Source: an uncultured Methanosarcinales archaeon
GTDB lineage: Archaea; Nanobdellota; Nanobdellia; Woesearchaeales; JACPIF01
Direction: 5' to 3'
Assembly (NCBI GenBank): GCA_964602245.1
Contig: CAZRPY010000002.1
Coordinates: 49,833 to 113,832 of the forward strand
DNA: 64,000 nt
Every line of letters starts with the position of its first letter. Position 1 is the stretch's first letter. Under the pieces are notes generated by a model. That model was not told the DNA's origin, made no database searches, and was given only the letters and a program-made list of their open reading frames with translations. Made by a program: the position numbers and the translations under genes. Below, piece by piece: positions 4,703 to 53,986 of this stretch.

Positions 4703-5533
4703 ATGAAAAGACGCACAATAGCAGGAAGAGCAGTATTTCCTATCGATCTGGGAGCCATGGCTCTTGACGAATACAAGCCAGCAGCCTCAGACAAAGATTC
4801 TTTTGATTTATTACGGCATGCTGTAAAGCAAGGTGTTGAACTTATTGACACTGCTGATGTCTATGGTTTAGGAAGGAATGAAGAATTAATCGGTAAAGCA
4901 TTGACTGCGGAGCAGAAGCAATCTGTAATCATAGCAACAAAAGTAGGATGCACGCGTCCTGATGGCATTTCATGGGGAACTGACGGCAGGCCTGAGCACA
5001 TAAAGAAGGCGGTGCATGAAAGCCTGAAGCGTCTGGGAGTAAAGCAGATTGAACTTTACCAGCTCCATGCGCCTGACAGAAGTGTGCCGTTGAAGGATAG
5101 TGTAAGAGCACTTAAAGAACTTCAGAATCAAAAGATGGTGAAGCATATCGGACTGAGTAATGTTACAATTGGAGAGCTCAAAGAAGCGCAGCAAATAGTT
5201 TCTATTGTTTCTGTGCAGAACCGTTATAATCTTTCCTATCATTGGAATGATGACCAGGAACTTCTTCCTTATTTGACAGAACAAAAGATTGCTTATTTGC
5301 CGTATTTTCCTTTAGGTAGTGGAAGACTGCTACAGCATCTTCCCTTAGTAAAGCTTGCAGAGAAACTGAGAATAACAGAAAGCCAGCTTTGTCTCGCATG
5401 GATCTTAAACAAATGGTCGATAGCAATTCCGATTCCGGGTACCAAGAACCCTGCTCATCTTGATGAAAATATGAAGGTTGCTGATGTTGAGCTGCCAGAG
5501 AGCATCATCAAGGAATTAGATGGAATGTTCTGA
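4703..5533 (+). CDS. aldo/keto reductase family oxidoreductase
   Basis: LIDTADVYG, IATKVG and later AKR motifs; start chosen at MKRRTIAG; elevated GC relative to surroundings. Confidence 0.8.
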   Translation: MKRRTIAGRAVFPIDLGAMALDEYKPAASDKDSFDLLRHAVKQGVELIDTADVYGLGRNEELIGKALTAEQKQSVIIATKVGCTRPDGISWGTDGRPEHIKKAVHESLKRLGVKQIELYQLHAPDRSVPLKDSVRALKELQNQKMVKHIGLSNVTIGELKEAQQIVSIVSVQNRYNLSYHWNDDQELLPYLTEQKIAYLPYFPLGSGRLLQHLPLVKLAEKLRITESQLCLAWILNKWSIAIPIPGTKNPAHLDENMKVADVELPESIIKELDGMF

Positions 5534-5602
5534 CTTTCTGTTTTAGAAATAGTTGTAACATTTAAGACAACATTTATAAATAATTGAGGACTTTTAGAAT
5601 AT

Positions 5603-6556
5603 ATGACTTTATATGACGTAATAATAATAGGAGGCGGAGTAGTAGGGTATGGAACTGCTATGTATTGTGGCAGGCTTAATTTGAAGACTCTTGTTATCGA
5701 GGCTAAACCTGGAGGAACAATAATTCTTACAGATGTTGTTGAAAATTATCCTGGCTTTATTAGATTAACAGGGCAAGAGTTGGCTGATGAGCTTAGGAAG
5801 CATGCTCTTGATTATAAAAAATATGTTGAATTTAAAGAAGAAACTGTAACTAAAGTAGAGAGAGTTCAGGATAAGAATGGGCATTATCATTTTGTTGTAC
5901 ATACAGATGAAAACAATAAATTTGAATCTAAAACAATAATATTTGCAACTGGCTCTGAGTGGAGAAAGTTACATGTGCCTGGAGAAGATGAATATTCTAA
6001 TAGAGGAGTTCATTATTGTGCATTATGCGATGGTGCTATTTATAATGGCAAGATTATGGCAATTGTTGGAGGGAGTGATAGTGCAGCAAAGGATGCACTT
6101 GTATTAACGCAGTGGGCTAAAAAAGTGTATATGATTTACAGAGGAGAGAAGATAAGGCCAGAGCCTATTAATTACGAAAGGGTTATGGCTAATAAGAAGA
6201 TAGAGATTATCTATAAGACAAATGTTAAAGAGATTAAGGGAGATGGCAAAAGAGTTACGCATGTAATACTTGATAGAGCTTATAATGGAAGCACTCAGTT
6301 TAAGCTTGATGTAATATTCATTGCTATAGGGCATATCCCTAAATCAGAGCTTGCAAAAGAGCTTGGAGTTGCTTTGAATGCAAAAGGTGAAATAATAATT
6401 GATAAAGAATCAAGAACTAATATTCCTGGAGTGTATGCAGCTGGTGATGTTGCAGATACAGAATTCAAACAGGCTATAACTGGTGTAGGAGAGGGTGTAA
6501 AGGCCTGTTATCAAGCTTATGTGTATGTTAATAGCCATCAGATTGAGCCGACTTAA
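5603..6556 (+). CDS. trxB: thioredoxin-disulfide reductase
   Basis: FAD-binding GGGxxG (IIIGGGVVGYGTA), redox-active CALCDG (CxxC) motif, NADPH-binding GGSDSA, C-terminal GDV FAD motif. Confidence 0.9.
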   Translation: MTLYDVIIIGGGVVGYGTAMYCGRLNLKTLVIEAKPGGTIILTDVVENYPGFIRLTGQELADELRKHALDYKKYVEFKEETVTKVERVQDKNGHYHFVVHTDENNKFESKTIIFATGSEWRKLHVPGEDEYSNRGVHYCALCDGAIYNGKIMAIVGGSDSAAKDALVLTQWAKKVYMIYRGEKIRPEPINYERVMANKKIEIIYKTNVKEIKGDGKRVTHVILDRAYNGSTQFKLDVIFIAIGHIPKSELAKELGVALNAKGEIIIDKESRTNIPGVYAAGDVADTEFKQAITGVGEGVKACYQAYVYVNSHQIEPT

Positions 6557-6585
6557 TCCTCTTGAGTTGTAGTAAAATTTAAATA

Positions 6586-7329
6586 TTGACCTCGCCTTAT
6601 TTTGAGATGATGGCTGAATTAGAAACTAAAATTCCAGAAATATTAAGTGCAATTCCAAAAATAGTAATTGTAGGTTCCCCTATTGAATCCGAGGGATATA
6701 TCCCTCCATGCTATACAATACCAAAACCTACATTTGATGATGTGACATTTGATTTACCTGCTTTAGGACAATGGGTTGAGTATTTAATTCTTGAATATGC
6801 AGCTGCATTCTCTCCTGGATTGAGTAGTAGAGCTCTACTAAACCAATCAATTGAAGAAATTGGAGAAACCCTTGCTTCAGGCACTGTTCGACCTGGAAGA
6901 TTTACATATATACCACAAAAAGAAGGAGATTTAACCGGATTCTTTGTAGGAAAACTTCTCTTTAAAGAAAAAAGAGGACAGGAAACAGTTGCTATAACAA
7001 AAGATAGGCAAGCAATCAAGGTATCAAGAACTCTTACTATCCCAGACGGCCGATATACTGTGGAAGCAAAATGCCATGAACTTATGTTATCTAATGAATG
7101 GCAGAAGTATGTTGGATGGTCTCGCACACCGGATTATGTTCTTGAAAGCCATGTTTTTTTATATCCTAACGTGGAATTTGCAAAAAGGGCTTTAGAAAAT
7201 GCCAAGAGCTGGAAAGCTGCAGGAAGACTGCCTCCTGAACAAACTGGGTTTTTAACTGAAACCATTAGTGCTTACCATTTGGATGACTTAACTGAAAAAC
7301 TTGAAAAAGCTATTGCTAACCAAACGTAA
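6586..7329 (+). CDS. hypothetical protein (GC-richer than surroundings)
   Basis: 247-aa ORF; no recognisable motif; compositionally distinct. Confidence 0.4.
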   Translation: MTSPYFEMMAELETKIPEILSAIPKIVIVGSPIESEGYIPPCYTIPKPTFDDVTFDLPALGQWVEYLILEYAAAFSPGLSSRALLNQSIEEIGETLASGTVRPGRFTYIPQKEGDLTGFFVGKLLFKEKRGQETVAITKDRQAIKVSRTLTIPDGRYTVEAKCHELMLSNEWQKYVGWSRTPDYVLESHVFLYPNVEFAKRALENAKSWKAAGRLPPEQTGFLTETISAYHLDDLTEKLEKAIANQT

Positions 7330-7425: not shown

Positions 7426-7653
7426 ATGATGGAAGTAAAGACTAAAACAAAGAAATGGGGAAATTCAATAGGTGTAATTATACCAAAGGAGATAATTAAG
7501 CAAGAGAATATAAAGCCAAATCAGGAAGTTACAGTTACAATTAATGTTAGACCTATAACAACTGTGAGAGATATTTTTGGGAAGATGAAATTTAAGAAAT
7601 CTACAGATAAATTAATGAGAGAAATTGATAAAGAATTTAATGTAGGTTTTTAG
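7426..7653 (+). CDS. SpoVT/AbrB (MazE-like) antitoxin
   Basis: KWGNSIGVIIPKEI swapped-hairpin beta-barrel signature; 2-nt gap to downstream PIN gene. Confidence 0.7.
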   Translation: MMEVKTKTKKWGNSIGVIIPKEIIKQENIKPNQEVTVTINVRPITTVRDIFGKMKFKKSTDKLMREIDKEFNVGF

Positions 7654-7654
7654 C

Positions 7655-8014
7655 ATGTACTTCTTCGATACTTACGCCATTATAGAAATAGAGAAGGGCA
7701 ATGAATCCTATGAACAACTTAAGGATTTAAAGATTATAACTAGTGTTTTGAATGTAGGTGAAATGTATCAAATCATTCTTAAGAAGCATGGCAAGGAAGA
7801 AGCAGATAAATGGTATAAAAATTCAAATTTCGATATATTAGAAATTACTTCTCAGGTTATAATAGAAGCAATATATCTTAGGTTTATACATAGAAAAAAG
7901 AATATTTCGTTGGTGGATTCTGTTGGATATGTCTTATCATTAAAGCATAATCTAAAGTTTTTAACTGGTGACCGAGCATTTAAAGACATGGAAAACGTGG
8001 AATTAGTTAGGTAA
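7655..8014 (+). CDS. PIN-domain (VapC-like) toxin
   Basis: N-terminal FDTYA..E, central SLVDSVGY and C-terminal FLTGD acidic residues in PIN spacing; paired with AbrB gene. Confidence 0.6.
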   Translation: MYFFDTYAIIEIEKGNESYEQLKDLKIITSVLNVGEMYQIILKKHGKEEADKWYKNSNFDILEITSQVIIEAIYLRFIHRKKNISLVDSVGYVLSLKHNLKFLTGDRAFKDMENVELVR

Positions 8015-10114: not shown

Positions 10115-10762
10115 CTATGCATACTTTGATATCTCACTTATATATCTTTCTTTATCCCAGCTATCAGGTGCTTTTAAAACTCTTTCACCATTCTTTATGA
10201 TAACCTTTGTGTGCTGGTAGGTTACTCCATATTGTTTTGCTAACTCTACTCCATCATCTGTTGTATCAGAGTCTTTGAAATTAACTCTAAAGCCAACTAC
10301 ATTAGGAAATTGTAGTTCATTAAATGCAGCAAAGGTAGATATTTGTTCTACTCTGCAGATTGGACACCAGTTCGCGTAAAAGTATAAGACAACTACTTTA
10401 TTCTCTGCCAATGCCTTTTCATAGTCTTCTTTATTATATTCAATGTATGGTGTTGTTGAGCCTGCAAGTATAGTGCCTTTTGCCATGAAAGTGCCTTCTT
10501 TAGCCATTGTATCGCCTTTTTTCTCCATAGCATCTTTCTCAGCCATAGTTTTATCTTCCATAGCTTTCTTTTCCATTGCATCCTCTTCTTTGATCATTGC
10601 GTCCTTTTGCATATCATTTTCTGCCATATTCTTGTCTTCCATAGCATCTTTTCCCATCATTTTCTTGTTTGCCTTATTTGTAGCGGTGCACCCAGCTATT
10701 AAAACAAATAAAGCAATTAAAGCTGCTAAATAAAGAGTTTTCATTTTGGCACCTATTTCCAT
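10115..10762 (-). CDS. thioredoxin-fold lipoprotein with internal AMEDK/AMEKK tandem repeats
   Basis: Signal peptide with lipobox (LIAGCTA), low-complexity (K/E)DAME(D/K)K repeats, C-terminal WCPICR CxxC thioredoxin motif. Confidence 0.65.
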   Translation of the reverse strand: MEIGAKMKTLYLAALIALFVLIAGCTATNKANKKMMGKDAMEDKNMAENDMQKDAMIKEEDAMEKKAMEDKTMAEKDAMEKKGDTMAKEGTFMAKGTILAGSTTPYIEYNKEDYEKALAENKVVVLYFYANWCPICRVEQISTFAAFNELQFPNVVGFRVNFKDSDTTDDGVELAKQYGVTYQHTKVIIKNGERVLKAPDSWDKERYISEISKYA

Positions 10763-11043
10763 GATATTATAGTTAAAATCAAAAATGCAATAGTCTGCAA
10801 TAAAGTCAATATAAAAACATGCAAACTGACCATGTCAACAAAGTAAGGGGTCATAGTTATGTAAAAATAAAAGGATGTTAGATTTTGTGCAAGGAATAAA
10901 AGATTGAAGAGCAGTAAACCAGATGTAAAGCTTGTTTTGAGCTTAAGCCAATTTCTTACATATATATAACCTAAAGCTAATAAGAATACTATATTTAAAG
11001 CTGTCAAAACAGTAGTTGCTTTCATTAAGAATTCCATTACCAT
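10753..11043 (-). CDS. small integral membrane protein
   Basis: 96 aa, three hydrophobic segments. Confidence 0.3.
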   Translation of the reverse strand: MVMEFLMKATTVLTALNIVFLLALGYIYVRNWLKLKTSFTSGLLLFNLLFLAQNLTSFYFYITMTPYFVDMVSLHVFILTLLQTIAFLILTIISWK

Positions 11044-11070
11044 ATTCGTTATCTAGATGCCCTATTTTAA

Positions 11071-11355
11071 TTACTTTTTCCCAAATTTCTTCCAAATCTC
11101 ATGGAATTCTTGCCATAATGCTTTAATATCCTCAGAAAGAAAGTAAACTGCTCCATATTTACCTTTGTTAATTGGAGATAAAAGATTATTATCTGCAAGT
11201 ATTCTTAGATGATGTTGTATTGTTTTATAATCCAATTTAAGTTTGTTTGCTAACTGATTTGCATTCATAGGCATCTTTTTTATAGCTATTATAATCCTTG
11301 TTCTGGTCTCTCCACCACGAGTGCCTAATAAAAGATACCAGATAAGGTTTTTCAT
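11071..11355 (-). CDS. winged-helix transcriptional regulator (ArsR/PadR-like)
   Basis: NANQLANKLKLDYKTIQHHLRILADNNLL HTH-like segment. Confidence 0.5.
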   Translation of the reverse strand: MKNLIWYLLLGTRGGETRTRIIIAIKKMPMNANQLANKLKLDYKTIQHHLRILADNNLLSPINKGKYGAVYFLSEDIKALWQEFHEIWKKFGKK

Positions 11356-11392
11356 AAGGTAAAAGGATAAAAGAAGTTATATAAGAAAGTTG

Positions 11393-13381: not shown

Positions 13382-13600
13382 ATGATAACCACAAAAACAA
13401 GAAAATGGGGCAACTCTCTTGGTGTAAGGATACCAGTAGAGATAGTTAAAGAGATGAGATTAAAAGAGAATCAGGAGATTGTGATAGATATTAAGCCGAA
13501 GGAAAATCCTTTGAAGGAATTGTTTGGCTCAGTAAAGTTAAGTAAGCCTACTGAACAATTATTAAAGGAAATTCGAGGAAAAGAGAGTAAATACATTTAA
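13382..13600 (+). CDS. SpoVT/AbrB (MazE-like) antitoxin, paralog 2
   Basis: KWGNSLGVRIPVEI; conserved upstream tttatatattagttatacat motif with two agttatacat repeats. Confidence 0.7.
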   Translation: MITTKTRKWGNSLGVRIPVEIVKEMRLKENQEIVIDIKPKENPLKELFGSVKLSKPTEQLLKEIRGKESKYI

Positions 13601-13601
13601 C

Positions 13602-13961
13602 ATGTTCTGCTTAGATACCTATGCACTGGCTGAAATTGGAGATGGAAATCCCAAATTTATAGACTTTTTAAATAAGGAATTTATTATAACAGATTTGACT
13701 TTGGCAGAATACTATTCTGTTTTATATAGGGAAGGTAAAGAAGATAAAGCAATTTACTGGCACAGCATATTAGCATCTTTTTGCAAGCCAGTTAGCAGAG
13801 AAATTTTAATAAAAGCATTAAAATATAGAATAGACAACAAAAAAGAAGATTTGTCAATTTTTGATTGTGTCGGATATATTTATTCTCTAGAGAATAAATT
13901 ACAATTTGTTACTGGCGATAGGGCTTTCGAAGGTAGAAAAGGAGTTTTATTTATTAAATAA
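13602..13961 (+). CDS. PIN-domain (VapC-like) toxin, paralog 2
   Basis: LDTYALAEI, IFDCVGY, FVTGDRAF; same architecture as 7655..8014. Confidence 0.6.
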   Translation: MFCLDTYALAEIGDGNPKFIDFLNKEFIITDLTLAEYYSVLYREGKEDKAIYWHSILASFCKPVSREILIKALKYRIDNKKEDLSIFDCVGYIYSLENKLQFVTGDRAFEGRKGVLFIK

Positions 13962-22444: not shown

Positions 22445-22663
22445 ATGGAAGTCAAAGTTAAAGCTAAGAAGATTGGAGGCTCTATAGGAGTAATAATTCC
22501 AAAAGAGATAGTGGAAAGTGAGAGAATTTCTGTAGATGATACTCTAAAAATAGATATTGAAAAAACTGACGATATCAGCTTTCTGTGGGGAAGAGGCAAG
22601 GACATTAAGAAGTCGACTGATCAGATAATGAGAGAGATAGATGAAGGAGAAATAGATGATTAA
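22445..22663 (+). CDS. SpoVT/AbrB (MazE-like) antitoxin, paralog 3
   Basis: KKIGGSIGVIIPKEIV; upstream tttatatataagttata motif related to the other two pairs. Confidence 0.65.
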   Translation: MEVKVKAKKIGGSIGVIIPKEIVESERISVDDTLKIDIEKTDDISFLWGRGKDIKKSTDQIMREIDEGEIDD

Positions 22664-23027
22664 AAGATTATTCTATGATACCTATGCTCTTATAGAAATA
22701 TATAAAGAGAATCCTAATTACGAGAAGTACAAGAAAGGCTTTAAAATTATACTTAATAAATTAAATCTGCTAGAGTTTTCTTATTTTTTATTTAGAGAAG
22801 GAAGAGGAAATGAAGCTAAGGAAATAATTAGTAGATTCTCAAAATTTAATATTGACTATGATAACGAAATATTACTTGAAACTGCAAAAATGAAATTTGA
22901 GCATAAAAAAGAATTTTTAAGTTATATTGACTGCATAGGATATCTTCTAGCCAAAAAGTATAATGTAAAGTTTCTTACAGGAGATGAAAAGTTTAGAGAT
23001 ATGGAGAATGTAGAGTTTGTGAAATAG
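22656..23027 (+). CDS. PIN-domain (VapC-like) toxin, paralog 3
   Basis: FYDTYALIEI, YIDCIGY, FLTGDEKF; 8-nt overlap with antitoxin gene. Confidence 0.6.
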   Translation: MIKRLFYDTYALIEIYKENPNYEKYKKGFKIILNKLNLLEFSYFLFREGRGNEAKEIISRFSKFNIDYDNEILLETAKMKFEHKKEFLSYIDCIGYLLAKKYNVKFLTGDEKFRDMENVEFVK

Positions 23028-47642: not shown

Positions 47643-47755
47643 GGGCTCATAGCTCAGCCTGGTAGAGCACTTGACTCTTACTGAACCAAGTTCAGGCCTT
47701 TTGAACTGGTTCAAAAGTAATCAAGGGGTCCTGGGTTCGAATCCCAGTGAGCCCG
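47643..47755 (+). tRNA. tRNA-Lys(CUU) with 39-nt intron at canonical 37/38 position
   Basis: Manually folded cloverleaf. Acceptor GGGCTCA/TGAGCCC, D-arm GCTC-AGCCTGGTA-GAGC, anticodon stem CTTGA/TCAAG, loop C-T-CTT-A. Intron spans 47681-47719 and contains two hairpins. Variable loop GGGTC, T-arm CTGGG-TTCGAAT-CCCAG, discriminator G. CCA is not encoded. Confidence 0.7.
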
Positions 47756-48458
47756 TTTTATATTCTTGAAGTTTTAGGATGTTTTTAGGATTAGAAAATC
47801 CAATTAATTGGGTATATTGCTCTATTTTTTCGTGTCCGCTTAAGTATAAATAGTTAGTAATGTACGGACGTTTAGTAATAGAGTGTATCATTGCACAATC
47901 TGTCTTAATACTAACCTTTAATCCAAGCAAATTAAAAGCCTTTTGACAATCTTGAATAAGTTTCTTACTGGCAAAGTTAAGTTTAACGACTGGGTAATTG
48001 CGCATCTTGATTTGGAAAGAACCGTCAGAATCAATTAATCCTCTTAAACACGCTCGAATAAATTTCGTATCACTCCAAATAACGATTGGCAGTCCGATAT
48101 TATCTTTTCTGCCTCTTGGCAATCCAATAATAGTAGTATAGAATTCAAATAAACCTTTTGAGTCTCTTATCAAAGCACATGTATTTTTCTTTTTAATTAG
48201 AAAGGAGAAATTAAGATTATAAAGTTCCTTTTTTAAGTTTTTTACGTAAATTTCATAATAAGTTCTATCAGAAGTAGCATTACCATAGCATTGTATCTCA
48301 TTGGATGTTGACGTTTTCCTTATAGTTTGATGTAGGCAACCATCACCAACCATAATTCCAATATCTTCAGCGAGAGCTTCATTCATCTCTGAAGGAAGTG
48401 TGAGACCTCTCAATAAGTCTTTTCTACTGAAATTTAATCTTGATAAATCGAATTTCAT
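47721..48458 (-). CDS. free-standing double-motif LAGLIDADG homing endonuclease
   Basis: Two LAGLIDADG motifs (IGIMVGDGCLH and LRGLIDSDGSF) in 245 aa; 3' end overlaps the tRNA-Lys 3' exon antisense by about 35 nt. Confidence 0.75.
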   Translation of the reverse strand: MKFDLSRLNFSRKDLLRGLTLPSEMNEALAEDIGIMVGDGCLHQTIRKTSTSNEIQCYGNATSDRTYYEIYVKNLKKELYNLNFSFLIKKKNTCALIRDSKGLFEFYTTIIGLPRGRKDNIGLPIVIWSDTKFIRACLRGLIDSDGSFQIKMRNYPVVKLNFASKKLIQDCQKAFNLLGLKVSIKTDCAMIHSITKRPYITNYLYLSGHEKIEQYTQLIGFSNPKNILKLQEYKTGSLGFEPRTP

Positions 48459-50693: not shown

Positions 50694-52271
50694 ATGGATG
50701 AAGTAACTGGACAACAATATAGTGAGATAATAAAAGAAAATCTAACTAATGTAGTACATTCTACCTTTATTCCAGAGTTTGGCTTTCCTTTTAATGGGAA
50801 GGTTAGAGATATCTATGATAGAGGAAATGATTTATTGATGGTAACTAGTGATAGAATTTCTGCATTTGACATTGTTCATTCTAGAAGAATCCCTTTTAAA
50901 GGTGCTGTTCTTAATGGACTTTCTTTATTTGGTTTTAAATTGAGTGAGGATATTATAGCTAATGCATTGATTTCGGCACCAGATCCTTATGTTCAAATAC
51001 AGGAAAGATTAGATAATTTAGGATTTGAATTTGTTGTGAGAGGATATATATGGGGTTCAATTGCTGAAGCTTACGAATCTAATGTAAGAGAAATATATGG
51101 CATTAAATTACCTGAAGGGCTATTAAGGTATCAAAAATTAGATGAACCACTATTTACGCCTACTACTAAAGCTCCAAGACCATATCATGATGAACCAGTC
51201 ACTTTAGAGCAGATGGTTAATGGATTTCAAGCTAAATATGGGTGGGTTGATGGATTAGCTGATAAATATGGCCATGATAAAGCAACAGAAATAGTACAGT
51301 ATGTAAAAGATGTATCTATAAGATTATATAGAAGAGCCCATGAGCATGCATTGTCAAGAGGGTTGATTTTTGTAGATACAAAATACGAATTTGGTATAGA
51401 TAAAGATGGTAAAATAAAGTTAATTGATGAAGCTAATACTCCTGATTCTTCCAGATTAGTGGATTTGACTGAGCACAGAGAAAAATGGTCTATTATTGCT
51501 AGTTTCATGCAGGAATTTTCTAGCAAATTCAGTAATGTTTCTAAATTATTACAAGAGCAACCTTTTTTAAAAATAACTGAGCTTTCTAAGGAATATGTAA
51601 GAGATAGATTAAGGGAACTTGGATATAAGAAGGGAGATACTATACTTCCTATGTTGAGTGATGATGATGTCACAGAAACAAGCTTAAGATACATAGAGAC
51701 TTATGAACGATTTACTGGCCAGAAATTTGATTTTGTAAGAAGTGAACTAGCTACTGGAGCAAGACTGATGAATAATCTTGTAAAAGCAGGTATTGCCAAA
51801 GGATATTGTGCTATTATTGGAGCTGGTTCTGATAGTGATAAAGAACATATTGGAAAGATTGTTAAATCTCTTGAAGAATACGGGATACCCTATCAAGTGA
51901 GAATTAAATCTGCGCATAAGCAAAAGGATGTTATTCCAATAGTAGAGTTCTATAACGAGAGTCTTGAACCATTAGTATGGATTGCTGTTGCAAGTCGTAC
52001 TGATGCTTTATCAGGCACAGTGTCATATCATTCAGTGCATCCTGTAATAAGCTGTTCTCCAGATGGGATAAATATGAGCTGTCTTAATAATCCGCCAGGA
52101 AGCCCGAACGCTACTATCGTTGATCCAAAAAATATTGGGAAATATGTTGCACAAACTTTCAGTTGGATAGATCCTAAGTTAAAAAAAAAGATTATAGAAT
52201 TAAATGAACAAAAGAATAAATCTTTAGAGGAAGCAGATAAAAAAGCGATTGCAGGAGAACTATTGAACTGA
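50694..52271 (+). CDS. fused SAICAR synthetase (PurC, N-terminal) and N5-CAIR mutase/AIR carboxylase (PurE, C-terminal)
   Basis: N-terminal GKVRDIYDRGNDLLMVTSDRISAFD (PurC). C-terminal CAIIGAGSDSD...IKSAHK...IAVASRTDALSG (PurE) in one 525-aa ORF. Confidence 0.8.
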   Translation: MDEVTGQQYSEIIKENLTNVVHSTFIPEFGFPFNGKVRDIYDRGNDLLMVTSDRISAFDIVHSRRIPFKGAVLNGLSLFGFKLSEDIIANALISAPDPYVQIQERLDNLGFEFVVRGYIWGSIAEAYESNVREIYGIKLPEGLLRYQKLDEPLFTPTTKAPRPYHDEPVTLEQMVNGFQAKYGWVDGLADKYGHDKATEIVQYVKDVSIRLYRRAHEHALSRGLIFVDTKYEFGIDKDGKIKLIDEANTPDSSRLVDLTEHREKWSIIASFMQEFSSKFSNVSKLLQEQPFLKITELSKEYVRDRLRELGYKKGDTILPMLSDDDVTETSLRYIETYERFTGQKFDFVRSELATGARLMNNLVKAGIAKGYCAIIGAGSDSDKEHIGKIVKSLEEYGIPYQVRIKSAHKQKDVIPIVEFYNESLEPLVWIAVASRTDALSGTVSYHSVHPVISCSPDGINMSCLNNPPGSPNATIVDPKNIGKYVAQTFSWIDPKLKKKIIELNEQKNKSLEEADKKAIAGELLN

Positions 52272-52738: not shown

Positions 52739-53581
52739 ATGGCAAGATCTAAGGGAGATGATTTGGGTAATAAATTTGCGAGATATTTAGTAGAAGCGAG
52801 TGGTTTTGGTGCTATAGTACGGCAAATAGCCAAAGAGGTAAGAGACCCTGTTGAAGATACAGGTAAACATAATATTCGTAATTCTGAAGAAGAAAGATTT
52901 GCTGAATTCTTGAGTGATGCAGCATTGCCAAGGAATGCTCATAGTTATACAGCACCTATGAGTCAAGATAAATCTGACATTGTAAGGGATAGAGATGAGC
53001 CAATACTATTAAATCCGCAAATTGATCACTTGACTAACATCATTCTAGGTACGAGAGAACGTAAAGATGGTATTACTGAATATGTTGAGAACTTAGATAG
53101 ATTTTGGGCAGCACAATATGCAGCCACTATACAAGCTTTTACATTGTTAACAGATTATCATAGACATAATAACAGACCTAATTATATTCCAGGTTATGAG
53201 GAGTATCTTGCTGGAAGATTTCTTATGTATAGGAGGTTAGTTGATGCTATAAAAATAGTTATGCCTGATTTAAAGGGAAGAAAAGCTATAGAGGTTGGCG
53301 GAGGAAGTGGCATAAGTCTTGCTATGTTAGCGCAAAATGGTGCTGAAGTAACTAATCTTGATATTTCAGAAATTGCATTAAAGTATTTTGAGTGTCTTGC
53401 TGGGCATTATAATGTTAAAAATAAAATCAATACAGAAAGAGCAGATTTCTTTAAAGGTGACCCTGAACTAAGTAATAGATTTGACTTGACTTATAATGTT
53501 GGTGTATTTGAACATTTAACAAGAGATGAACAATCTCATCTATTAGAAGAAATGGTGAGAATCACTGCTCCTAGTGGTTGA
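52739..53581 (+). CDS. SAM-dependent methyltransferase with long N-terminal domain; ends at TGA that is in frame with next ORF
   Basis: EVGGGSGISLAMLAQNGAEVTNLD motif I, ...RITAPSG then TGA at 53579-53581. Confidence 0.55.
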   Translation: MARSKGDDLGNKFARYLVEASGFGAIVRQIAKEVRDPVEDTGKHNIRNSEEERFAEFLSDAALPRNAHSYTAPMSQDKSDIVRDRDEPILLNPQIDHLTNIILGTRERKDGITEYVENLDRFWAAQYAATIQAFTLLTDYHRHNNRPNYIPGYEEYLAGRFLMYRRLVDAIKIVMPDLKGRKAIEVGGGSGISLAMLAQNGAEVTNLDISEIALKYFECLAGHYNVKNKINTERADFFKGDPELSNRFDLTYNVGVFEHLTRDEQSHLLEEMVRITAPSG

Positions 53582-53584
53582 GTT

Positions 53585-53986
53585 ATGGGATCAGTTCCAA
53601 ATCCTAAGAGTCCTTATTATAAACTGATTCAAGAAAGAGAAGAAAAAGTTCCAAAAGATAAAAGACTCCCAATGCCTTTTGTGGAATATGTCGATCCTGT
53701 CATATTATTAAAAGGCGCTGGATTAGAGCCAGCAAAAGACGGAAAATATGCACAGGGTTACACTCAGATTGCACCGCCTACTAGAATTAAACCAGGTTTA
53801 ATAAGTCTAGAAGATTCTGGATTTTTTAGAGACTACTTGTCTTTTGATCCTGGAAAAACAACAATGAAAACATTGTTAGGAGTTTGGTATCTTTTAGAAG
53901 ATAATGCCCAAAAAAATGCCCAGAGTATGTATATATTAGAAAAATATGGCATGTTTACTCATGCATTTGGTAGAAAACCTGGATAA
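53585..53986 (+). CDS. probable C-terminal continuation of the preceding methyltransferase
   Basis: Same frame as 52739..53581, separated by a single TGA + GTT; would read ITAPSG-x-VMGSVPN, resembling the LKPGG-type post-II motif. Confidence 0.45.
   Translation: MGSVPNPKSPYYKLIQEREEKVPKDKRLPMPFVEYVDPVILLKGAGLEPAKDGKYAQGYTQIAPPTRIKPGLISLEDSGFFRDYLSFDPGKTTMKTLLGVWYLLEDNAQKNAQSMYILEKYGMFTHAFGRKPG

Follow-up and report, generated by a model that had tools for sequence, protein, structure and literature searches.

The locus described here lies in a 64-kb window (the whole 64,000-nucleotide stretch that was analysed) of contig CAZRPY010000002.1, from an uncultured archaeon. It holds one gene, here termed PurCE, that joins two enzymes of purine synthesis: PurC, which makes SAICAR (succinylaminoimidazolecarboxamide ribonucleotide), and PurE, which acts on AIR (aminoimidazole ribonucleotide). 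A first-pass annotation had described a single 525-residue open reading frame (ORF) with an N-terminal SAICAR synthetase and a C-terminal PurE, and the ORF listing, Pfam, and NCBIfam agree. The frame runs from ATG to stop over 525 codons with no internal stop (Table 1). The domain search proposed at that stage finds both families above their gathering scores: SAICAR_synt (PF01259) at residues 34-260 (163.2 bits, E 1e-47; cut-off 20), and AIRC (PF00731) at residues 375-508 (62.8 bits, E 3.5e-17). The NCBIfam purC and purE models match in the same order (purC with up to 262 bits), with scores under the full-length equivalog cut-offs, as expected of a fusion. The strings quoted in the annotation are all present: GKVRDIYDRGNDLLMVTSDRISAFD (residues 35-59), GAGSDSD (376-382), SAHK (406-409), and VASRTDALSG (432-441).

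Table 1. The fusion gene, its parts, and associated elements (window coordinates unless a locus is named).
Feature	Position	Strand	Basis
purC-purE fusion gene, complete	50694..52271	+	525 aa + stop; single ORF, full-length homologues, AlphaFold2 (AF2) model
SAICAR synthetase (PurC) half, long form, residues 1-~350	50694..51743	+	PF01259, 163 bits; Ade1/mycobacterial matches
Short helical linker, residues ~351-370	51744..51803	+	AF2 helix 354-364; boundary of the two half-specific hidden Markov models (HMMs)
PurE half, class II-type Thr-Asp (TD) subtype, residues ~371-520	51804..52253	+	PF00731; class II clade
Phosphate/ribose-binding loop G378-S-D-S-D382	51825..51839	+	Aligned to 2h31; human PAICS G273-S274-T275-S276-D277
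40s loop S406-A-H408-K409	51909..51920	+	Catalytic His, then class II Lys
70s loop A433-S-R-T-D-A-L-S-G441	51990..52016	+	Column profiles, motif table
TATA-box-like element ATATATAA	50660..50667	+	~30 nt 5' of the ATG; read from the sequence
IMPDH relic, contigs of P0002	L085 1892-2020; L086 6442-6570		Small ORF after PurCE

The assigned start codon is backed by homologues that align from residue 1 (database proteins P0002 and P0003, each covering 100% of the query). The element ATATATAA may be the gene's own archaeal promoter, in which case the leader would be very short. An AF2 model built from the family alignment is confident over the whole chain (predicted local distance difference test 94.2; predicted template-modelling score 0.89; no segment below 50). 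In it the PurC fold is followed by a helix (residues 354-364) and then by the strand that opens PurE (372-377), and the PurE half closes with a long C-terminal helix (494-519).

Two adjacent genes, purC and purE, might have been falsely joined by a stop codon or frameshift missed in sequencing or assembly, and this was the refutation that the first-pass annotation itself had named. Certainly, the raw material for such an error exists: several bacterial loci (L014-L017, L025, L065, and L084) carry purC followed by purE with just a stop and a few bases between them, and one member of the fused family (L010) is itself broken by a frameshift. Nevertheless, an identical 525-residue protein is encoded in a separate ENA assembly (ERZ27284378, a 3.4-kb contig, L001), where it follows the same class I lysyl-tRNA synthetase (LysRS) gene. 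The best 120 homologues in a collection of 5.8 billion proteins all hold both Pfam domains in one protein of ~490-535 residues; one of them sits in a closed 919-kb Woesearchaeota chromosome. Single ORFs were also confirmed with half-specific HMMs at six loci of the genome collection (L004-L009), and the linker belongs to the confident part of the AF2 model. Finally, comparison with the 70%-identical P0002 gene gives a ratio of nonsynonymous to synonymous change (dN/dS) of 0.165 over the whole length, at a dS of 1.19, and such a value (0.17 when rounded) opposes a joining artefact. By half, dN/dS is 0.18 for PurC and below 0.12 for PurE, where dS is saturated; both halves have been under strong purifying selection since the split from P0002. 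The probability of a false join is thus close to nil, and that explanation is effectively refuted.

The N-terminal half is a PurC of the long microbial and fungal form, with predicted SAICAR synthetase activity. Used alone against the PDB, it scores 133 bits with Mycobacterium abscessus PurC and 122 bits with yeast Ade1; short-form PurCs score 20-50 bits, the N-terminal half of Bombyx PAICS (the animal PurC-PurE fusion) scores 21 bits, and human PAICS goes undetected at E<=10. Foldseek superposes the model on Ade1 and M. abscessus PurC with template-modelling (TM) scores of 0.79-0.83, normalized to the target, over ~350 columns (root-mean-square deviation [rmsd] 3.2-5.5 Å). Ade1 (1A48/2CNQ) and the M. 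abscessus enzyme (3R9R/6YVQ) share fold and length class with the query at 28-33% identity, but are monofunctional, whereas the query continues through the helical linker into PurE. Three motifs are invariant in an alignment of 67 family sequences, the query included: GKVR (residues 35-38; G35, K36, R38), DTKYEFG (228-234; D228, T229, K230, E232), and DSSR (251-254; D251, S252, S253, R254). At the level of motifs only, these would correspond to residues G16-K19, K191/E193, and D212-R215 of PAICS (PMC9376930).

The C-terminal half poses a question raised at the outset: is it a class I or a class II PurE? The active-site residues of the human PAICS AIR carboxylase domain and their roles have been described (PMC9376930), and the query aligns with them throughout: S274/S276/D277 with S379/S381/D382; S301/H303/K304 with S406/H408/K409; and G330-R331-S332-N333 with S434-R435-T436-D437. 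All 120 family members keep S379 and S381, and 98% keep D382. Every member (120/120) reads SAHKQ in the 40s loop, where class I loci read SAHR; Lys rather than Arg after the catalytic His is a recognized class difference (PMC10484210). The 70s loop is less orthodox. Class II enzymes have AGRSN(A/G)L(S/G)(G/P) and class I enzymes AGxAAHLPG, whereas the family reads AGGTDALSG and the query ASRTDALSG. The canonical class II loop is therefore absent from the query, with Thr-Asp in place of Ser-Asn, although the ALSG tail agrees with class II, as does the Arg, which is present in the query only. Residues S434 and R435 are in fact unique to the query among the 120 sequences. The class I signature (SAHR together with AGxAAHLPG) is not found in the query.

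Comparison of whole domains points the same way. The best PDB matches of the PurE half are the Treponema denticola class II PurE and PAICS, ahead of class I enzymes. Conversely, a family profile gives canonical class II PurEs 102-127 bits (for PAICS, totals that include a small second stretch) and class I PurEs 30-70. The PurE phylogeny that the first-pass annotation had suggested, a neighbour-joining (NJ) tree of 41 PurE domains, unites bacterial class II enzymes, PAICS, and the TD-type fused family in one clade with 100% bootstrap; the TD-type family forms its own subclade, also with 100%, and groups, with weak support (63.5%), as sister to the PAICS PurE. With the clade, the SAHK pair, and no purK nearby, the question is answered in favour of class II. 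The assignment holds for type; the enzyme is not a canonical class II PurE, its 70s loop reading TDALSG rather than SNxLxG.

The T. denticola PurE (3RG8) is the best single-domain match of the C-terminal half (60.7 bits, 32% identity, TM score 0.87, 2.0 Å), and the two have in common the SAHK pair and a 70s loop ending in xxALSG. It differs in being standalone, and in its loop sequence (AGRSNALSG). In the Treponemataceae, purC lies directly upstream of a purE of this type (L025, L084). The TD motif itself is more widely spread. In an exhaustive comparison of the PurE half with 1.84 billion representative proteins, its holders comprised 23 standalone PurEs, 11 proteins of 250-400 residues (some with two matched stretches), and 8 PurC fusions. 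Because it also occurs in standalone PurEs, the TD type is a broad class II subfamily rather than a by-product of fusion. The weak Pfam AIRC score reflects the TD subtype, not decay. The near-invariant signatures of the 120 members are AGSDSD..H, CSAHKQP, AGGTDALSG, PVISCPP, and NPPGSSN. The query keeps 117 of 124 family-conserved positions; its seven changes (the median elsewhere is one) touch no catalytic residue, and K405, S434, R435, S455, and P471 are specific to it.

Two other readings of the PurE half deserve weighing. It could be a class I N5-CAIR mutase (N5-CAIR, N5-carboxyaminoimidazole ribonucleotide), or could use N5-CAIR formed non-enzymatically, with PurK encoded elsewhere in the genome. 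This is improbable. The low AIRC score and the departure of the 70s loop from the canonical class II sequence fit it, a PurC-class I PurE fusion is known (L040), and purK was searched for in the window, its flanks, and the operons of relatives, not genome-wide. Against these points stand SAHK instead of SAHR and the lack of AAHLPG; class II clustering at 100% bootstrap; higher scores against class II structures; and purine operons around family members, all of which, as far as seen, lack purK. A second and very improbable reading makes the domain a paralogue (LarB-like, for example) or a pure oligomerizing scaffold for PurC. Pfam AIRC takes in such paralogues too, and the PGAP pipeline calls the relatives just "AIR carboxylase family protein"; but no residue that PurE uses for substrate binding or catalysis has been lost, the domain nests among bona fide class II PurEs, and in purine operons without another purE it stands in for that gene.

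Archaeal PurE-like ORFs of 255-272 residues were seen at four other loci: L019 (5333-6151), L030 (5078-5863), L041 (6033-6830), and L060 (9977-10744). Those of L019, L030, and L060 show a hybrid signature, SAHK with a class I-like AGLAAHLPG; that of L041 reads SAHRTP and AGLSAALPG, and directly abuts purC. All four cluster near Methanocaldococcus jannaschii PurE.

The fusion is not alone. Highlighted in the first-pass annotation as a prokaryotic exception, it is real, but it has many relatives, in a large family found in metagenome-assembled genomes (MAGs) of Woesearchaeota and Nanoarchaeia, and in protists. The 119 homologues listed are 45-70% identical to the query over 92-100% of its length; many such proteins already stand in databases under generic names, such as that given by PGAP. 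The query shares the family's defining features: a length of ~490-535 residues, PurC followed by PurE, and the SAHKQ, TDALSG, PVISC, and NPPGS motifs, with its lineage-specific changes. It falls inside the family clade with 100% support in both half-trees (PurC and PurE).

Gene context among relatives is that of purine synthesis. In the complete 919-kb Woesearchaeota genome (CP070803.1), the family member P0096 lies in the order purB, HAD, PfkB, purL, purQ, PurCE, purM. Around P0099 the order is PurCE, a purM-like gene, guaA, purN, pyrG, guaB, purF, purL. Neither of these two stretches contains purK or a second purE.

Concatenated, PurC-half, and PurE-half trees agree on the same groups, and since the half-trees are congruent the fusion predates the radiation of the family. 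The main Woesearchaeota/Nanoarchaeia clade has 100% support. The query clade (P0001, P0002, and P0003) is long-branched, with 7-10 changes at conserved positions against a median of one elsewhere. Apart from both stand the protist proteins (from Diplonema papillatum, Vitrella brassicaformis, Rhynchopus, and MMETSP/EukProt entries; P0012, P0024, P0052, P0087, P0097, and P0111 among them). Their hosts are eukaryotic, yet they are 45-49% identical to the query over 94-97% of its length, and carry the same motifs. Support for the protist clade (diplonemids, Vitrella, and MMETSP/MERC sequences) is 100% with the halves concatenated, 99% with PurC alone, and 87.5% with PurE alone. The clade is nested among prokaryotic sequences, and this nesting would imply gene transfer between domains. 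The outgroups closest to the family in the PurC tree are a Chlamydiales fusion and PurCs from Bacteroidota/Rhodothermota; other Woesearchaeota and Nanoarchaeota have standalone PurCs that branch elsewhere. With outgroups that are bacterial and other Woesearchaeota PurCs placed apart, the topology suggests that the fused gene reached DPANN archaea by horizontal transfer, and that its presence in both protists and DPANN is due to transfer between domains.

One member complicates the rooting. A Gemmatimonadota MAG (L012) carries an unfused purC (5532-6644) and purE (10699-11358) 4 kb apart, both of which fall inside the fused family; its PurE reads SAHKQP and AGGTDALSG, and either secondary fission or transfer of separated halves could account for the arrangement. 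P0099 groups with this pair. The concatenated tree was rooted on L012, but half-trees with real outgroups place L012 inside the family, so the rooting needs caution.

The family also includes larger fusions (P0041, P0053, P0110, and P0121): PurC-PurN-PurE of 711 residues, and PurC-PurE with a PurQ-like GATase_5 domain of ~800. A double PurC-PurE of 1068 residues has SAHK and AGGTDALSG twice each. Some members that cluster with the Woesearchaeota/Nanoarchaeia sequences (L005, CAYQZV010000002.1; L009, DAOVQR010000012.1; L010, JBDLIU010000045.1; and P0016) come from records labelled "uncultured bacterium", "bacterium", "Bacteroidota", or "Patescibacteria". Such labels suggest mis-binning, mislabelling, or further transfers.

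The first-pass annotation had called the architecture PAICS-like. Animal PAICS (2H31, 6YB8, and 4JA0) indeed combines the same two predicted activities in the same N-to-C order, and its PurE half is likewise of class II type, sharing the SAHK His-Lys pair and the phosphate- and ribose-binding Ser/Asp residues. It is also the only solved structure that spans both halves, and 6YB8 is the top Foldseek match. The likeness stops at domain order: PurC subfamily and predicted domain arrangement both differ. The PAICS N-terminal half belongs to another PurC subfamily than the Ade1/mycobacterial type seen here, and a comparison aimed at PurC orthology gave only the 21 bits with Bombyx and nothing with human PAICS noted above, against 133 and 122 bits with long-form enzymes. 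The query is ~100 residues longer, and its TDALSG contrasts with SNGLGP in the PAICS 70s loop. Superposed as a whole chain, the model deviates from PAICS by an rmsd of 22.6-22.8 Å (TM scores 0.40/0.50), although the single domains fit well; the prediction is of a monomer. The inter-domain arrangement is accordingly predicted to differ from that of PAICS. The query is thus PAICS-like in layout and predicted working, but is not a member of the PAICS family.

Because the PurC halves belong to different subfamilies and the predicted domain geometry differs, the fusion probably arose independently of animal PAICS and converged on the same order. Extreme divergence of the animal N-terminal half is the less likely alternative.

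Other prokaryotic fusions differ again. Single-ORF PurC-PurE genes with the canonical class II loop AGRSNALSG occur in Chlamydiales (L011, 4588-5925) and Wirthbacteria (L013, 1162-2742), and one in an unnamed bacterium (L040, 9986-11572) pairs PurC with a PurE of class I (SAHR/AGGAAHLPG). The half-trees place L013 and L040 apart from the query's family, whose nearest outgroup is the PurC half of L011 (71%). All three appear to be separate fusion events. In many bacteria (Treponemataceae, Rectinemataceae, Peregrinibacteria, Anaerolineae, and Gracilibacteria among them) purC is directly followed by a separate class II purE, plausibly a pre-fusion state. Two Gracilibacteria-type loci (L015 and L017), with purC and purE in frame and a single stop between them, might be fusions if genetic code 25 applied; this was rejected, since the intervening codon is TAA and precedes a fresh Met start.

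What sort of genome carries the query? The window is archaeal, from a Woesearchaeota-like DPANN organism. It encodes archaeal markers (ribosomal protein S3Ae, CTP-dependent riboflavin kinase, Pth2, and class I LysRS), and its G+C content is ~33% throughout, with the PurCE gene no outlier. The gene order DUF7502, MoxR, DUF58, arginase, methyltransferase, Pth2, LysRS, PurCE is shared with a Candidatus Woesearchaeota contig (GCA_016188215.1, L002), which carries P0003, 63% identical to the query. The contigs of P0002 match as well (LysRS, PurCE, ..., AbrB-like, GyrB, S3Ae). A eukaryotic contaminant as the source of the window was dismissed, given the archaeal markers, the operon-like gene packing, and the synteny with Woesearchaeota contigs.

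The absence of purK nearby, as originally claimed, is borne out: a Pfam scan of every ORF of at least 70 residues in the 64-kb window found no ATP-grasp/PurK and no other pur gene. Exact-protein look-ups found none in ~4 kb beyond each window end, and tblastn searches of window and flanks with nine purine-pathway proteins, PyrG, and three other operon-neighbour products gave no match. Relatives hint at what was once there. P0003 is followed by genes for IMP dehydrogenase (IMPDH, guaB) and adenylosuccinate synthetase (PurA). Immediately after PurCE, the P0002 contigs retain 43 residues of the IMPDH N-terminus as a relic (77% identity with the intact L002 protein); no such relic is detectable in the query window. 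Since P0003 retains the pair and P0002 holds the relic, the lineage of the query and P0002 has lost the adjacent guaB-purA and kept PurCE intact under selection.

At the place that IMPDH and PurA occupy beside P0003, the window has an S-adenosylmethionine-dependent methyltransferase ORF (52739-53581, + strand). After its single TGA the same frame goes on for 133 codons (53585-53986). The ORF pair, 52739-53986, might be a pseudogene, a sequencing error, or a case of read-through.

Purine-operon context, together with the conserved active sites, makes it likely that the protein is a bifunctional enzyme of de novo purine synthesis, an AIR carboxylase/SAICAR synthetase, in a Woesearchaeota-like DPANN archaeon. 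The PurE half would convert AIR and CO2 directly to carboxyaminoimidazole ribonucleotide (CAIR) by class II chemistry, needing neither PurK nor ATP. The general base would be His408, with the phosphate bound by Lys409, Ser379, and Ser381 and the ribose by Asp382. The long-form PurC half would combine CAIR with aspartate and ATP to form SAICAR. Fusing consecutive steps would fix a 1:1 stoichiometry, and would probably favour hand-over of the labile CAIR, by analogy with PAICS, in which a PurE octamer core carries the PurC domains. Oligomeric state and channelling presumably resemble those of T. denticola PurE and PAICS. Presumably, too, the host genome has the remaining purine pathway.

Several points weigh against this bifunctional role. 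No biochemically characterized family member was found in the literature searched. The 70s loop is TDALSG, not SNxLxG, and the query deviates further at S434 and R435, so that a preference for CO2 over N5-CAIR is a prediction. No other pur gene lies in the 64 kb or in ~8 kb of flanks, and the IMPDH-PurA pair has been deleted in the query lineage, with its relic in P0002. The trees were built by NJ from simple distances over 148-491 columns, not by maximum likelihood.

Some of these points would also fit an eroding pathway. The gene could be a leftover in a host-dependent DPANN archaeon, serving a partial pathway on scavenged intermediates or a moonlighting or structural role. The ~72 kb without a further pur gene would fit, as would the deletion of the neighbouring IMPDH and PurA genes (with the 43-residue relic in P0002) and the long branch of the query clade, with its 7-10 conserved-position changes against a median of one; moreover, complete nucleotide synthesis is missing in many DPANN (PMC8421398, PMC7414124). 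We nonetheless regard erosion as distinctly unlikely, in view of the strong purifying selection on both halves since the P0002 split and the retention of all catalytic residues. Archaeal pur genes, furthermore, are often dispersed, and some Woesearchaeota subgroups have near-complete purine pathways (PMC8421398).

A bolder proposal is that TD-type PurE is a functionally distinct third kind of PurE, differing for example in CO2/bicarbonate handling or substrate hand-over, and that its ancient fusion to a long-form PurC was passed between DPANN (or their bacterial donors) and several protist lineages. This is offered tentatively, as unlikely. If true, the PAICS-like solution to the AIR-to-SAICAR problem was invented independently at least two times, and spread across domains by gene transfer.

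Earlier surveys frame these results. Brown et al. 2011 (PMC3261824) saw PurC and PurE fused in none of 65 archaeal genomes, noted that the fused form is common among eukaryotes, and reported that Archaeoglobi possess a PurE resembling class II, without PurK. A comparison of Woesearchaeota (PMC8421398) describes subgroups D and J as nearly complete in purine synthesis, and a gain of purE; the fusion goes unmentioned. No description of this prokaryotic PurC-PurE fusion, or of TD-type PurE, was found in the literature searched.

The textbook view of the PurC-PurE fusion (PAICS) as an animal feature is thus too narrow. Prokaryotes have at least three kinds, one of them common in DPANN archaea and protists. 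The predicted route from AIR to SAICAR, free of PurK and sparing ATP, in small anaerobic archaea bears on how far supposedly dependent organisms can make their own nucleotides. Names such as "AIR carboxylase family protein" mask the bifunctionality, and may lead pathway reconstructions to score purC as missing. The family is also a natural comparison for studies of substrate channelling and of what determines class I versus class II (Thr-Asp versus Ser-Asn in the 70s loop), and its distribution in archaea and protists is a clean example of a fused metabolic gene transferred between domains. The interest of the finding rests on a probably independent origin, a distinct class II subtype, the spread over DPANN and protists, and the consequences for annotation; no unexpected mechanism is indicated.

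Other features of the window are worth recording. A tRNA gene of 113 nt (47643-47755, + strand; Rfam 59 bits) evidently contains an intron of ~40 nt, and was missed by ARAGORN; an ORF resembling LAGLIDADG homing endonucleases (47721-48458, - strand) overlaps its 3' end by 35 nt. Three pairs of AbrB/MazE-type antitoxin and PIN toxin (VapBC-like) lie within 16 kb: 7426-8014, 13382-13961, and 22445-23027. Lastly, the segment 35902-44000 holds a cluster (BatA/VWA/DUF7408, VWA, DUF7502, MoxR AAA+, and DUF58) that resembles Bat aerotolerance/MoxR systems, and its DUF7502-MoxR AAA+-DUF58 end is syntenic with the Woesearchaeota contig L002.

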